This document shows positions 7,887 through 48,168 of a stretch of DNA of 64,000 nucleotides, piece by piece. The position numbers and the translations under genes are program-made. Origin of the DNA: a virus (lineage: Duplodnaviria > Caudoviricetes); the IMG/VR virus record IMGVR_UViG_3300025435_000018, positions 1,691-65,690 of that record, one strand, 5' to 3'. Position 1 is the stretch's first letter. The number at the start of each line of letters is the position of its first letter. The notes beneath the pieces were generated by a model that was not told the DNA's origin, made no database searches, and saw only the letters and a program-made list of their open reading frames with translations.

Positions 7887-8390
7887 ATGAATATTTATTA
7901 TGTATATGCTTACCTACGTAAAGATGGTACACCTTATTATATTGGCAAGGGAAAGAATAAACGTTATATAGAAAAGCATAACGTAGAAGTTCCTAAAGAT
8001 AGAAAATTTATTGTTTTCTTAGAAACTCATCTCACTGATATTGGTGCCCTTGCATTAGAAAGAAGATATATTAAATGGTACGGACGCAAAGATCTAGGTA
8101 CCGGAATTTTACGCAATAAAACAGATGGCGGAGAAGGTCCTTCTGGGCAAATCGCTCATAATAAAGGGCAACGTATTCCAAAAGAGATTTGCGAGTCAGT
8201 TAAGATTAAAAAAGAAAAAATTCGTCCAGGCACCGGAGCGCATGTAGGTAAAAAGTTTTCAGACGAAACAAAAGCAAAAATGTCGGCTGCTAGAAAAGGT
8301 AAACCACTGTCAGCAGAAACCCGTGCTAAAATGTCAGAGGCAAGAAAGAGACTTTTTGCTGCGGTTAAAGCAAATCATTTGTTACGATAA
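7887..8390 (+). CDS. free-standing GIY-YIG homing endonuclease with NUMOD3 repeats
   Basis: [20 protein letters not shown]; two [20 protein letters not shown] repeats; AT-rich and opposite strand. Start moved to the ATG after the AAGGAG SD. Confidence 0.88.
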
Positions 8391-8593
8391 ACCACCCGTC
8401 CACGATTCATGTCATATGGTGACATTTCAACGTCGACTGTGTCTCCCAATAAAATGCGTATATTATGCTGTCTAAGTTTACCACCAATTGTGGCAATGAT
8501 CTTGTGGTTGTTTTCCAATACCACACGAAACATAGCATTGGGCAAAACTTCTTCTATTTTGCCCGATAGTTTGATTAAATCTTCTTTTGCCAC
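8375..8593 (-). CDS. infA: translation initiation factor IF-1
   Basis: MAKED...[11 protein letters not shown]...IRILLGD.V.VEMSPYD..RGRVVYR; 72 aa. Confidence 0.97.
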
Positions 8594-8619
8594 TTTGGCT
8601 AGTTCTCCTAAAAAGTTAT

Positions 8620-9372
8620 TTAGCGGCGCTCAATGTCTTCTTCTGTACAATCAGTGCCGTACTGTATTTCTACCAGTGTGCAAGGCTCGTCAAATGGATT
8701 AGTAAGTTGATGCCAGCCCATTTTGGGAACAGAATACATGCTGTGTATTTGCAGTTCACGAGACGGAAAAGCATAACCGCTGTTGCCCTGTTCGTTTACA
8801 ATACAACGCCCGCCTGTAACGTGCCAGTGTTCTGCTCGGTCACGATGCCGTTGCATACTCAGCTTTTGTCCCGGCATGATGGTGAGTTCTTTGACTTTTG
8901 TGCCGTTTACTTCATGCAAAACACGATAATAGCCCCAGGGACGCTCGGTTTTAGGAGCCTTCCATTCATCAAGAATCCAACTGCTACTGTTGGCTTTGCA
9001 GTCTCCGCCAACGCCAAACACAAACTCCACACCCTCTACTGACATTTCAGGAATGTTGTCGGCAGTACGATCACCGCCATTGGCAAAGATGATTTCATCA
9101 TTCGGGTAACGAGTCTTTATATTTTCCAATAACTTAATCGCGCTACCATCACTGTCATCCCAATATGTGGTTCTATCAACAAATTTTAAGTTATTAACCA
9201 CTGATTCGCGTTCATGCCATGGCATAAATGCTCTGCCTTTTTTGCGTTCAAGCCAAGCATTGCTGTTTAAGCCAACAATTAATATATCACCCAGTTGTTT
9301 GGCTGCTCGTAAGTATGCGATATGACCGCTGTGAATGGGATCAAAGCCCCCTGTTGCTAATACTATTTTCAA
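8620..9372 (-). CDS. cytidylyltransferase-like domain fused to a mannose-6-phosphate isomerase (ManC-type) cupin
   Basis: [11 protein letters not shown] (HxGH); ANGGDR; RPWGYY...LSMQRH..RAEHW...EIQYG. Confidence 0.88.
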
Positions 9373-9635
9373 TTAATATCCTTTGCTTGTAATTTGGCCC
9401 ACGCAAACTCCTGCATGGCTTTTTCGTCTCGGGTTATGTAACCGTACTTGCGTAACCAGTCGGGAAACTTTGACCAGTTGTAGTGGACCAAGCGTACTCC
9501 ACCTTGGGGACCTTGACACCAAACTATGTCATAGTTTGCATGGTACCAACTTGTATTGCGTGGAGGAGCGTTTGAGGTAAGATGTCGAACCTCATTGCCT
9601 TTTGTGACGCAGTAATAATGATAACGCTCAGCCAC
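9369..9635 (-). CDS. hypothetical protein
   Basis: Probable GTG start overlapping the upstream gene end; start uncertain. Confidence 0.55.
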   Translation of the reverse strand: MAERYHYYCVTKGNEVRHLTSNAPPRNTSWYHANYDIVWCQGPQGGVRLVHYNWSKFPDWLRKYGYITRDEKAMQEFAWAKLQAKDIN

Positions 9636-10020
9636 GGCGCATACGGCTGATTTCCACAGCCTCTTCATCTGAGAACACTGGCACAGCGTTGCTCTTGTGC
9701 ATGGTGGCAATGCCCTTGACCTTGGTGCCTGTGTAGACTTTGGTCACAGAGGCAGTGCTTGCGCCTGCTGTTACCTTGCTAGGAATGTGATTGGTATTGC
9801 CGCGACCTGCTGGTGCACCAAGCGAATAGGTCAATGCAGGTGCAGACATGGCACGTTGACGTTTCTTAGCGTCAGCATCCACGCCCCACTTTTTCTGTAG
9901 CTCTTGCCAATCAGCGTCTAACTGGCGTGACTTGCGAGCTTCTTCAGCGTTGCGAAATTTAACCTTGCCTTTTTTCTTGCCAGCAAGGCTAAGACTGGGG
10001 TGATGTAAGTGCATTGTCAT
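9628..10020 (-). CDS. conserved T4-like phage hypothetical protein
   Basis: C-terminal YTGT.VKGIATMHKSNAVPV motif; leaderless promoter. Confidence 0.8.
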   Translation of the reverse strand: MTMHLHHPSLSLAGKKKGKVKFRNAEEARKSRQLDADWQELQKKWGVDADAKKRQRAMSAPALTYSLGAPAGRGNTNHIPSKVTAGASTASVTKVYTGTKVKGIATMHKSNAVPVFSDEEAVEISRMRRG

Positions 10021-10026
10021 AACTGT

Positions 10027-10055
10027 ATTATAACAACAAAATCATTTTGGGTCAA
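10027..10055 (-). promoter_or_regulatory. early sigma70 promoter, representative of a repeated family
   Basis: TTGACC-17-TATAAT with AAATG just after the -35. Related copies near 11705, 13256, 17691, 23140, 26870, 30426, 30741, 34295, 37261, 48637, 48972, 49230 and 52632. Confidence 0.85.
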
Positions 10056-46153: not shown

Positions 46154-46210
46154 AGAAAAACCCTCGCTACGGTATTTAAGTACCGTACGAGGGCTGGTTA
46201 ACTACGCTGT

Positions 46211-46924
46211 TTATTGTGCTTGGAGTGTGGTCTGTCCGATCACAGCACCGGGCTTTTGTAGGGCCTCATCACGTTTGCGCTTGTATTCAGCATTGTCTAC
46301 GTTGAGTAGAGTAATACCTTCAACACGGCTCTGTGGAGCTTCGCTAACCGGGGCACGTGCCTTGTCGTTCAACTCATCAAGTTCTTTGAACTCTTTGCGA
46401 GCATCGCTGTCAATTTGTTGATCTTGAGCACGGCGTTGCTGTCTCAAGGTAACTTTGTTTTTGTCGCCTAGGGGCAAGGCAACCAACACAAAGGCATGAT
46501 AGCGTCCGTTTTCAAGAATGATTTGACTACGGTCCACACGACTGCCTGCTACACTGACATCAGCACAGAAGTTTCGAATAGCAGTAGTTGAAGTGCTCTT
46601 GCTGCCAGTTTCAGTGTCTTGTCGGTAGATCTTTGTTTGACTACGAACAGTACCACCTGCACCTTGACAAATACCTTCAAAGGCATTTGCACGAGCATTG
46701 CCCAGCGCACCACTGGCGCTGCCACTGACACCATCGCCTACTGCGTAGAGATGATCTTCGTCATTGGGCACACTTGTAAACCAATCGGGAATACCGTTGG
46801 GGTTAACAGGTGCAGCCACCTGTACAGGTTGTGCTGTGGGCTGTGGTGCCAAGACAGTCTGGGGCTTAGTTGAACTACAGGCAGCAAGACCTGCTACGGC
46901 AAAAACGACTAACAGTTTACGCAT
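46211..46924 (-). CDS. LPP20-like lipoprotein
   Basis: Lipobox LAAC; PDWF...LYAVG.G.S; start moved to MRKLL. Confidence 0.75.
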   Translation of the reverse strand: MRKLLVVFAVAGLAACSSTKPQTVLAPQPTAQPVQVAAPVNPNGIPDWFTSVPNDEDHLYAVGDGVSGSASGALGNARANAFEGICQGAGGTVRSQTKIYRQDTETGSKSTSTTAIRNFCADVSVAGSRVDRSQIILENGRYHAFVLVALPLGDKNKVTLRQQRRAQDQQIDSDARKEFKELDELNDKARAPVSEAPQSRVEGITLLNVDNAEYKRKRDEALQKPGAVIGQTTLQAQ

Positions 46925-46971
46925 GATTACTCCTTTGCGTGGGTTACAAAAATTACAGTTTAACACTGATT

Positions 46972-47385
46972 TCATTTTGAGTCAACCAATGGGTCCCAAC
47001 GGTTAACAACAGGACGTTCCGCAGGGCCTAGTCCATGTGGGTTGCTGTTACAGACTGTGGCTTGGCCTGTACCATTCTGCATGTCCTCTCGCACATGAAC
47101 GCAACCAACAGGTTTGGGTTTTTGCTGTGGACAATAGGTCTTGATCTCGTTCAAGTTCTTGTAGATGATGGCACGACGATTAGCATCAAACGCAAACGGT
47201 GTCGTAGTTGCCAACTGTTGGCGCAGGAACACAGTTTGTTCTGCGGCATGTTCGCAGTCCCATTTAAAATGGTTCAAGTCACCAAATGCCATGCCCTGTG
47301 GTGGAGGGTTGTAGAGTGGGGTGTTGTTGGCACAGGCAGCAAGTGTGAGCGCGGCCACAACAATCAACGATCTTTGCAGTACCAT
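46972..47385 (-). CDS. lipoprotein
   Basis: Lipobox LAAC. Confidence 0.7.
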   Translation of the reverse strand: MVLQRSLIVVAALTLAACANNTPLYNPPPQGMAFGDLNHFKWDCEHAAEQTVFLRQQLATTTPFAFDANRRAIIYKNLNEIKTYCPQQKPKPVGCVHVREDMQNGTGQATVCNSNPHGLGPAERPVVNRWDPLVDSK

Positions 47386-47615
47386 TCTAGTCTTTCAACG
47401 TAGAGATCAATCGCATGATTGTATTCTTCTACAGTTACACGATCACCAGTACGCATGGGCAAGGGTTTCAAACTTGTCAAATAGCTGATATGACGATCAC
47501 GGTTTAAACAATCCGGTGTGGGCCCGTATGTGGTCCAGAGACTATCATACAGGGGCCTAGGGTCCGGGGGAAGACAATCAGCCATGCCCATCAGCAAGGC
47601 GATCAGCATACACAT
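47364..47615 (-). CDS. hypothetical protein
   Basis: Coupled ORF; hydrophobic N-terminus. Confidence 0.6.
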   Translation of the reverse strand: MCMLIALLMGMADCLPPDPRPLYDSLWTTYGPTPDCLNRDRHISYLTSLKPLPMRTGDRVTVEEYNHAIDLYVERLEWYCKDR

Positions 47616-47783
47616 GATCAGTGCTTGTGGAAAGTTACAGTCTGCTTGACGGCCTGGACTGCTTCGGTCTCACCAACTCCTGCGTTACGCTGTACATAAC
47701 GCACAGCATCACGGCTGTTGAATTGAAGAACAAAAATTGCTTCATTGGCGAAGCGCTCGACGGTTGCGTTCATGTATAACTCC

Positions 47784-48014
47784 TTACTTGACGCGGTTGA
47801 TAATCTCTAAGGCCTGACTACAATCCAAGCCTGCTTCATTTTGCAGAGCTTCTTCCATTTCCATCAGCTCAACATCTTTTTCAACACGATAGCGCTGGAT
47901 CAGTTTTACTGCATAGATACGGTCTTCTTGATCCAGGCTCTCGGCCCACTCATTGAACTGGTCATCAGTCAAGCCAATGATGTAGTTGAGATTGTTGCGA
48001 TCATAATCATTCAT
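47784..48014 (-). CDS. hypothetical protein
   Basis: MNDYDRNNL.YI; AGGAG SD. Confidence 0.75.
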   Translation of the reverse strand: MNDYDRNNLNYIIGLTDDQFNEWAESLDQEDRIYAVKLIQRYRVEKDVELMEMEEALQNEAGLDCSQALEIINRVK

Positions 48015-48168
48015 AGTCAGCTCCTGCGTGTTTAGGCTTGCGTTGGTAACGAGGTTTTGCGTTCACTACCTTGGGTTTGAACGGCGTGTCGCTTCGAAAC
48101 AGAACCCGGTGCGCTCTTGGCTCGGGGCTTTGATGCTTGAGTTTTATTTTTAGTTTTTCGACTGCCAT
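48007..48168 (-). CDS. ArfA-like small basic protein (53 aa)
   Basis: Not in ORF track; CAGGAG SD; VLFRSDTPFKPKVVNAKPRYQRKPKH resembles ArfA [27 protein letters not shown]. Confidence 0.6.
   Translation of the reverse strand: MAVEKLKIKLKHQSPEPRAHRVLFRSDTPFKPKVVNAKPRYQRKPKHAGADYE

Follow-up and report, generated by a model that had tools for sequence, protein, structure and literature searches.

Co-retained translation-support and Clp genes in a freshwater phage lineage, with a two-piece tmRNA and a possible joint role in ribosome rescue

Do translation-related genes that lie scattered through a phage genome act together, or is each kept for a use of its own? The question is raised by a 64,000-nucleotide stretch of the virus record IMGVR_UViG_3300025435_000018 (Duplodnaviria; Caudoviricetes), referred to here as the window. 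An initial annotation had noted in it infA, a gene for a protein with the C-terminal domain (CTD) of ribosomal protein bL12, a transfer-messenger RNA (tmRNA), an RMF-like gene, clpP and an ArfA-like open reading frame (ORF), and had combined them into a coordinated system for recycling stalled ribosomes. The window covers positions 1691-65690 of a 65,690-base record that is rated 18% complete, and we therefore treat it as a fragment of a phage whose full genome is implied to be about 350 kb. infA, clpP, the tmRNA and the bL12 CTD are what their names say, and they have been retained together in diverged relatives. That the lineage keeps translation-support genes of its own under purifying selection, and that these have a joint effect in ribosome rescue and clean-up, is a reading to which we give about an even chance.

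Related phages were sought through the bL12-like protein, which returned 15 viral loci; the counts given here refer to nine related records (the amidoligase, tried as an alternative marker, returned 3 loci and was not used). Four of the relatives are near-complete genomes of 320,767, 354,098, 374,314 and 364,247 bases, rated 92-100% complete. When 123 mechanically called ORFs of the window, some of them surely spurious, were compared by tblastn, 69 (56%) had a homologue in relative G002 and 52 (42%) in relative G005. The relatives are thus not near-identical genomes, and five of the six elements have been co-retained in them although they have diverged: the tmRNA, IF-1, ClpP, the bL12-like gene and the ArfA-like gene occur in all four near-complete relatives (counts for each in Table 1). 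For these five, the co-occurrence that the initial annotation had proposed to look for was found.

Two of the protein-coding genes are readily identified. The infA product scored 108.2 bits against TIGR00008 (cut-off 61.15), where its residues 3-70 cover the first 68 of the 69 profile positions, and 82.8 bits against Pfam eIF-1a; it is a full-length IF-1, and is 75% identical to its homologue in G002 and 54% to that in G005. The clpP product reached 214.2 bits in Pfam (cut-off 20.2) and, with 248.3 bits, stayed just under the threshold of 249 of the ClpP subfamily model NF001368, against a score of only 76.3 (threshold 120) for the head-maturation model NF045542; it is for this reason a true ClpP and no prohead protease. 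In its match to solved ClpP structures (E 4e-61) the Ser, His and Asp positions align, and the catalytic triad is intact (GQACSMG, MIH and the D of ...FDTFLSA, aligned to 8r05_A), the triad residues being those that we take from E. coli ClpP. At 88% identity to the G002 homologue it is the best conserved of all window proteins in the tblastn comparison. The initial calls of infA at 8375 and of clpP at 44977 are borne out by these scores. Relative to solved ClpPs, the window protein carries a 12-residue insert (10 + 2) shortly after the catalytic His, at a position that presumably corresponds to the handle region.

The tmRNA is of the two-piece, circularly permuted type. The Rfam family tmRNA_permuted (RF04321) matches positions 31394-31715 along its whole length (model positions 1-213), and the 71.3 bits lie above its gathering score of 47; the best of three older clade models, the betaproteobacterial one, gave 41.7 bits, below its gathering score of 84. 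In the permuted order, the T arm and the end reading ...CAGGUCCACC stand at 31715-31654 and are followed by GGGCCUG and the tag frame from 31548, the spacer between the two pieces presumably being removed in processing. The acceptor stem has 7 bp with G31546:U31659 as its third pair; a G3:U70 pair is an identity element for alanyl-tRNA synthetase (AlaRS). The resume codon GCA (31441-31439), preceded by UAAAU, opens a tag frame of 33 codons at 31441-31340 that ends in ...TEAAFA and is closed by TAA (31342-31340), and a hairpin (31293-31277) with a T run ends the gene at about 31272. The extent of 31268-31720 proposed in the initial annotation was essentially right, given the Rfam match and the terminator read at 31293-31272. 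ACC is followed by T in the window gene (31653-31654), so that the terminal A of CCA is not encoded; ACCA is encoded in G001, G003 and G005. ARAGORN reported no tmRNA in the window and none in locus L023, though Rfam finds both, and surveys based on ARAGORN would therefore overlook the tmRNA of the window.

The tag encoded by this tmRNA was compared with those of other viruses by scanning IMG/VR for the conserved tmRNA core, which gave at least 120 loci and, with the window and three relatives, 124 core matches; these include some duplicates, a few loci being relatives already in the set. The acceptor piece lies upstream of the coding piece in 88 of the 124 (a pattern-based count). Tags were read by script, and 91 of the 98 readable ones are of the ANDxxFALAA type with 10-14 aa, among them ANDERFALAA in six viral copies, a sequence that the one-piece tmRNAs of Variovorax and Piscinibacter encode as well. 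Five of the 98 are long and basic: that of the window (33 aa) and four others of 33, 32, 28 and 27 aa (in L145, L235, L184 and L157). Two further reads were set aside as script artefacts, a 23-aa 'tag' that enters the terminator (L164) and one of only 2 aa. The five long tags share an A-K-x-S-T motif, a G-K-G core and an E-A-x-x-A-type end, with the consensus AK.ST..G.VKV..GKGFRFGG....TEAAFA over 27-33 aa. Since the copies differ by synonymous changes and by whole codons, the long tag is, as far as sequence comparison can tell, a conserved and translated variant and not a product of decay. It has neither the A-N-D start nor the L-A-A end, which in the E. coli tag serve SspB and ClpX, respectively, and it may be aimed at a different protease.

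A circularly permuted ssrA has been described in the lytic aquatic OM43 phage Melnitz, with two-piece forms being common in aquatic phages (Buchholz et al., PMC9004378). The window tmRNA resembles that of Melnitz in its permuted form and its origin in an aquatic lytic phage, with no SmpB mentioned for Melnitz. Its tag departs from the usual phage type in being 33 aa long and basic with an end in AAFA, in contrast to about 10 aa ending in ...ALAA. We found nothing in print on long-tag viral tmRNAs, although no search was aimed at them. The long basic tag can be viewed as a natural experiment on the requirements for a working tmRNA tag.

The 135-aa bL12-like protein is a chimera. On its own it barely exceeds the Pfam Ribosomal_L12 threshold (26.6 bits, cut-off 25.9; residues 70-99 only). 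A profile of 14 sequences of its family matches solved bL12 CTDs at E 8.5e-7 (profile positions 64-126), and hhalign against five bacterial bL12 proteins gave 97.4% probability and E 1e-11 for the CTD only (columns 68-127). Moreover, the AlphaFold model has a mean predicted local distance difference test score (pLDDT) of 81, and in a Foldseek search of the PDB ranks 1-14 are all bL12. The helix-loop motif I-K-x-x-R...G-L-K-x-x-K-D is invariant across the 14 sequences; we take it to be the surface that contacts EF-G, EF-Tu, IF2 and RF3. Mizuno et al. (2019, PMC6375957) have likewise pointed out the factor-contacting surface in bL12 domains of other viruses.

The N-terminal 57 residues are more conserved than the CTD (mean column identity 80%) and are predicted to form a three-helix bundle (pLDDT 86). 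When this N-terminal domain (NTD) was compared with 48,161 chains by VIA-align, the top match was a generic one, a designed helical protein at Z 6.5, and the protein atlas yielded no usable match. The sole return from BFVD was a further phage protein, labelled 'L7/L12 C-terminal', whose two domains are arranged alike (E 0.042). The family is large: at least 1,314 metagenomic proteins reach E<=0.001 out of 8,000 candidates scored. The best 120 have lengths of 127-145 aa, cover the query by 99-100% in 119 cases and by 76% in one, and are named 'hypothetical' or 'L7/L12'. The window protein is 78% identical to its G002 homologue, which, like the 75% of IF-1, comes close behind the 88% of ClpP. 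Because the N-terminal dimerisation and bL10-binding domain and the hinge could not be recognised, we do not file it as bL12: of the initial call at 25125, the bL12 CTD stands and a whole bL12 does not. As in the viral cases described by Mizuno et al., a bL12 domain with its factor-binding helix motif retained sits inside an otherwise unrelated phage protein; unlike in those cases, its partner is a specific conserved three-helix domain of 57 residues. In that study, bL12 was confined to cultivated phages of less than 80 kb (PMC6375957). Nothing in print was found on the NTD of this family, no search having been aimed at that domain. With its size and invariant NTD, the family represents a widespread, uncharacterised candidate for a ribosome- or GTPase-binding factor.

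The ArfA-like ORF, preceded by an AGGAG (Table 1), ends at a normal stop after 53 codons. Among 44 aligned family members, 36 match DUF7230 and 23 match Pfam ArfA (best E 4.2e-5), and a search of 177,635 PDB sequences with the family profile returned ArfA chains exclusively (best E 0.01). Comparison of the family with five genuine ArfA sequences by hhalign gave 72.7% probability and E 3.2e-5. R43, K46 and H47, which form the ...R-x-x-K-H end, are invariant in the 44 sequences and align to the ...RKGKH of ArfA, where the K-H motif makes conserved contacts in the mRNA entry channel, as it does in BrfA (PMC8012679). A wider database held 141 family proteins at E<=0.01 among 245 candidates; among the 120 homologues listed, seven are named 'stalled ribosome alternative rescue factor ArfA' by the Joint Genome Institute and seven carry DUF7230. 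The literature search found no publication on DUF7230; an ArfA-domain gene is already in print for pelagiphage HTVC027P (gp30, PMC12753301).

Compared with ArfA (PDB 5U4I, 5MDV and 5H5U), the family has in common a length of about 53 aa, similar to the active truncated form, the invariant K-H pair and a basic C-terminal F-x-x-[KR]-V...Y-x-R-K-x-K-H. It differs in lacking the G-K-G-S loop (a 3-residue gap in the alignment), and the window gene ends at an ordinary stop, whereas ArfA is expressed from a cleaved non-stop mRNA. The N-terminal part could not be aligned to the RF2-contacting part of ArfA by hmmsearch or hhalign, with a loose L-F...P-F resemblance by eye. The ORF is a real, conserved gene whose product plausibly works like ArfA at its basic K-H tail. 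Its likeness to ArfA is weak but specific and at the level of the motif, and it is at most a candidate member of that family.

These three elements could also be turned against the host. The tmRNA would then titrate SmpB, AlaRS or EF-Tu, a free bL12 CTD would sequester translational GTPases, and the ArfA-like peptide would fill the mRNA channel. Such decoys or inhibitors of host translation would fit a bL12-like protein without a recognisable stalk-binding NTD and the lack of a phage SmpB: the Pfam SmpB model, a check of the kind suggested in the initial annotation, found nothing in the 18% fragment that is the phage's own record (0/1) or in five relatives (0/5), including the four near-complete ones (0/4). 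A precedent is the tag-less tmRNA-like RNA of mycobacteriophage DS6A, reported to inhibit endogenous tmRNA in E. coli (PMC11915505). On the other hand, the tag frame is unbroken, and its peptide is conserved and, in most viral copies, host-like (such as ANDERFALAA), which argues that the tag is translated, and the phage needs functioning ribosomes for its own genome. We consider the decoy explanation improbable.

The relatives add further genes to the set. The 65.7-kb record, at 18% of the genome, holds no ClpX or ClpA gene; the relatives encode a ClpX (522.7 bits, cut-off 359) and a ClpA-like protein (812 bits, cut-off 993), and ClpS is present in all four near-complete genomes. An RF-1-domain gene likewise occurs in each of the four. 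In G001, G002 and G005 a conserved in-frame TGA after codon 35 splits its 35-codon start from a frame of 187 codons; with the TGA read as W, the 223-aa product aligns to RF1 positions 107-334 with 197.7 bits, compared with 102 without the upstream part. It is accordingly a predicted RF1-like protein lacking domain 1. The TGA presumably stands at a position occupied by Trp in bacterial RF1. Because long frames of these genomes otherwise often stop at TGA (85 of 297 in G002), the in-frame codon looks like programmed read-through or regulation. An identity of the RF-1 matches as 'mini-RF/ArfB' was rejected, the ArfB model scoring 16.7 (threshold 100) and the frame extending through the TGA into RF1 domain 2.

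With ClpX, ClpA, ClpS and the RF1-like gene added by the relatives, the genes suggest a theme of rescue plus proteolysis. If they act jointly, their effect would be a greater capacity to free ribosomes on broken or stop-less mRNA and to clear the products. The two-piece tmRNA would rely on host AlaRS for charging and on host SmpB and EF-Tu for delivery, and would tag nascent chains; as no phage SmpB was found, its function would depend wholly on that of the host. The ArfA-like protein would use its basic K-H tail to probe an empty mRNA channel and would recruit a release factor, probably host RF2. ClpP would degrade tagged and other proteins with ClpX, ClpA and ClpS, which are known from the relatives and presumably lie in the rest of the genome. 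IF-1 would aid re-initiation, and the bL12-CTD protein would present a factor-binding surface on a phage-specific anchor. We infer each of these functional steps, the interdependence of the genes and the trigger, be it host mRNA destruction or toxins.

Several observations weigh against a joint rescue function. The translation and Clp genes are dispersed over 40 kb among unrelated neighbours, gene order and spacing vary among the relatives, and G001-G004 are close kin, so that the co-retention represents about two independent lineages. Phage-encoded ClpX, ClpA and ClpS speak for general proteolysis over tag-specific clean-up, and the missing SmpB leaves the tmRNA without a phage partner. No RNA dataset is found among the 24 datasets that hold near-identical sequence. 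By hhalign, and with no match to the Pfam N-domain, the bL12-like protein has an NTD unlike the bL10-binding N-domain of bL12. The window's ArfA-like protein had no match to Pfam ArfA (PF03889) at E<=1, and the hhalign stretch shared with ArfA spans 22 columns only; of the initial call at 48007, a conserved gene with family-level ArfA likeness remains, and a match of the window protein itself does not.

The RMF-like ORF does not fit this function. Its product exceeded the Pfam RMF threshold by 0.1 bit (28.0, threshold 27.9) and stayed under all NCBIfam cut-offs (Rmf_like_phage, 26.7 of 40; Rmf_CrpP_fam, 24.2 of 28; a third model, 18.1 of 55). It shares with RMF/CrpP-fold proteins a G-x-x-A...C-P-Y...W-x-x-G-W core and the threshold-level model match. 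RMF is strongly basic; unlike it, the window protein is near-neutral (isoelectric point (pI) 7.9; K+R 6, D+E 5) and has an extra N-terminus of 24 residues. There are three near-identical homologues only, and none of the nine related records carries the gene. We find no grounds for placing it among ribosome factors, and the initial call at 34947 is borderline; labels such as 'RMF' and 'ArfA' on small phage ORFs of this kind call for care. The coordinated recycling system as first proposed is partly supported, by the co-retention of five elements in diverged relatives, and loses ground with an unfit RMF-like gene, a weak link to ArfA, the lack of SmpB and the absence of clustering.

A simpler account, nearly as good, is that there is no system. 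The genes would be host-derived auxiliary genes acquired separately, each with its own use: ClpP, with the phage ClpX, ClpA and ClpS, would break down regulators of host or phage and recycle amino acids, phage translation would be tuned by IF-1 and tRNAs, the tmRNA would top up a host function, and co-retention would reflect a hoarding habit of huge phages. This agrees with the dispersal of the genes among unrelated neighbours, with the 47-50 tRNAs that the relatives carry, and with the layout of G005, where ClpX, ClpS and ClpP lie within 4.5 kb and the tmRNA stands some 190 kb away from clpP, at the end of the genome. Against it, the tmRNA, the ArfA-like and RF1-like genes and the full Clp set were retained in both diverged lineages, and ssrA-tagged chains are a textbook substrate of ClpXP. 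Furthermore, 2.1-5.6 kb separate the ArfA-like gene and clpP both in the window and in G001-G004. Genes of this sort are listed across many unrelated huge phages (PMC7162821), which again suits separate uses. On balance, we regard the absence of any system as possible, though on the unlikely side. The Clp genes of G005 form a compact module (L117, G005:166500-172200), with ClpX at about 167.3 kb, ClpS at about 169.8 kb and ClpP at about 171.3 kb, a span of less than 4.5 kb.

Among the triggers named in the initial annotation are toxin defences; read as abortive-infection toxins that cut mRNA or tRNA, they would make the genes a counter-defence. mRNA interferases do create non-stop complexes, and ArfA and RMF have been reported to rise in a DRT2-defended host (PMC13434031). 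No gene in the window could be tied to a defence system, although no scan against a defence or anti-defence library was made, and the phage's own non-specific endonuclease (Table 1) would be an equally good source of broken mRNA. A role in counter-defence thus seems to us improbable.

A further possibility, rather unlikely in our view, is that the lineage runs a largely self-contained pathway for non-stop products, tuned away from that of the host by its own tag, an ArfA-type probe with the RF1-like factor and an anchored bL12 CTD. The basic tag of 27-33 aa would have replaced the host-like ANDxxFALAA and would be read by phage Clp unfoldases or another protease, not by host SspB and ClpX. The ArfA-type probe would partner the domain-1-less RF1-like factor, whose synthesis would need UGA read-through and would thereby sense host RF2 activity, and the phage anchor domain would hold an additional factor-binding domain of the bL12 type at the ribosome or close to it.

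The general idea of translation genes in huge phages is already in print: IF1, L7/L12, release factors, tmRNA and SmpB have been reported there and viewed as intercepting host translation (Al-Shayeb et al. 2020, PMC7162821). Unlike in those repertoires, where SmpB is listed beside tmRNA, none was found in the clade studied here; the clade has several Clp genes, and 'Clp' is absent from the main text of that article. Less expected are the conserved basic tmRNA tag of 27-33 aa and the large phage family that joins a new NTD to a bL12 CTD. For studying what the translation genes of huge phages may do jointly, the clade offers a compact, conserved set: an SmpB-less tmRNA, an ArfA-like probe, an RF1-like gene with an in-frame UGA, ClpXP and ClpAPS, IF-1 and the bL12-CTD chimera. 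Should these genes prove unlinked, the result would still sharpen annotation.

Table 1 Coordinates of the features discussed, in the window unless a related genome is named, with their occurrence in related records.
Feature	Position	Strand	Content	Basis or remark	Related records
infA	8375..8593	-	Translation initiation factor IF-1, 72 aa, GTG start	TIGR00008, Pfam eIF-1a	7/9; 4/4 near-complete
bL12-CTD gene	25125..25532	-	135 aa; N-terminal three-helix domain (~1-57) and bL12 CTD (~60-135)		4/4 near-complete (>=90% complete)
tmRNA, coding (5') piece	31272..31548	-	5' acceptor strand GGGCCUG, resume codon, tag frame, terminator		Permuted tmRNA over cut-off: 5/9; 4/4 near-complete
tmRNA, spacer between pieces	31549..31653	-	105 nt	Insert inside a loop of the Rfam model	
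tmRNA, acceptor (3') piece	31654..31715	-	T arm and 3' acceptor strand, ends ACC	Rfam alignment, sequence	
RMF-like gene	34947..35162	-	71-aa Rmf/CrpP-fold protein	Pfam RMF borderline	
clpP	44977..45600	-	Clp protease proteolytic subunit, 207 aa	Pfam, NF001368, solved ClpPs	6/9; 4/4 near-complete
ArfA-like gene	48007..48168	-	53-aa basic protein, pI 10.4, DUF7230/ArfA-like family	ATG at 48168, 7 nt after AGGAG	5/9; 4/4 near-complete
RF1-like gene without domain 1, G001	L113:179-850	+			
RF1-like gene without domain 1, G002	L289:13707-14378	-			
RF1-like gene without domain 1, G005	L267:1137-1808	-			
Fe/Mn superoxide dismutase	7260-7805		Auxiliary metabolic	No tie to translation	
Beta-ketoacyl synthase	15063-16298		Auxiliary metabolic	No tie to translation	
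Fatty-acid desaturase	16229-16984		Auxiliary metabolic	No tie to translation	
2-oxoglutarate-Fe(II) oxygenase	31723-32577	Same as tmRNA	Prolyl-hydroxylase type	PF13640 23.6 bits, below cut-off of 27	
Non-specific endonuclease	41943-42770				
CTA-anticodon tRNA, G002	about 174,391-174,465				
CTA-anticodon tRNA, G005	L019:2898-2972				

The initial annotation had described the layout as dispersed, and this is what we observe: the six features are islands among unrelated accessory genes, with no operon. All six lie on the minus strand, which carries almost all long ORFs of the window. Apart from the genes of Table 1, the annotated neighbours include an Ig-domain protein, a cytidylyltransferase-cupin protein, a metallophosphoesterase, an ATP-dependent DNA ligase, homing-endonuclease-like genes, a nucleotidyltransferase, an amidoligase, a 5'-nucleotidase, three GNATs, a SprT-like protein, a radical S-adenosylmethionine enzyme and sugar-nucleotide enzymes. 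The idea that the GNATs are Rim-type ribosomal acetyltransferases was unsupported (rimI, 29.3 with a cut-off of 86.4). The gene for the 2-oxoglutarate-Fe(II) oxygenase lies directly upstream of the tmRNA and has no homologue in G002 or G005; some enzymes of this superfamily hydroxylate ribosomal proteins or translation factors.

No integrase was found in any of five records, and the tmRNA is therefore no attachment-site remnant. We take the phage to be a lytic one of freshwater and the window to be part of its accessory region. Near-identical DNA was found in 24 sequencing datasets, every one of them freshwater metagenome DNA, and a megablast of window positions 30000-46000 against 50,697 deposited phage genomes gave no match. 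The host is probably a beta- or gammaproteobacterium. It is not indicated by the tmRNA type, as none of 15 sampled beta- and gammaproteobacterial genomes held a permuted tmRNA over the cut-off, nor by ClpP, the nearest cellular ClpPs being 50-55% identical and coming from mixed beta- and gammaproteobacteria.

ARAGORN called no tRNA genes in the window. Among the many tRNAs of the relatives, one with the anticodon CTA (an amber suppressor, called 'tRNA-Pyl' by ARAGORN) is found in both diverged lineages, 0.9-5 kb from the tmRNA, and one tRNA of G005 was called with a four-base anticodon (tttc). The closest 'bacterial' ClpP, with 71% identity to that of the window, is encoded on the 9-kb contig JAYQBD010000083.1 (L031, 8,996 b) of an Oceanospirillaceae metagenome-assembled genome bin, and this contig may be a mis-binned phage fragment.

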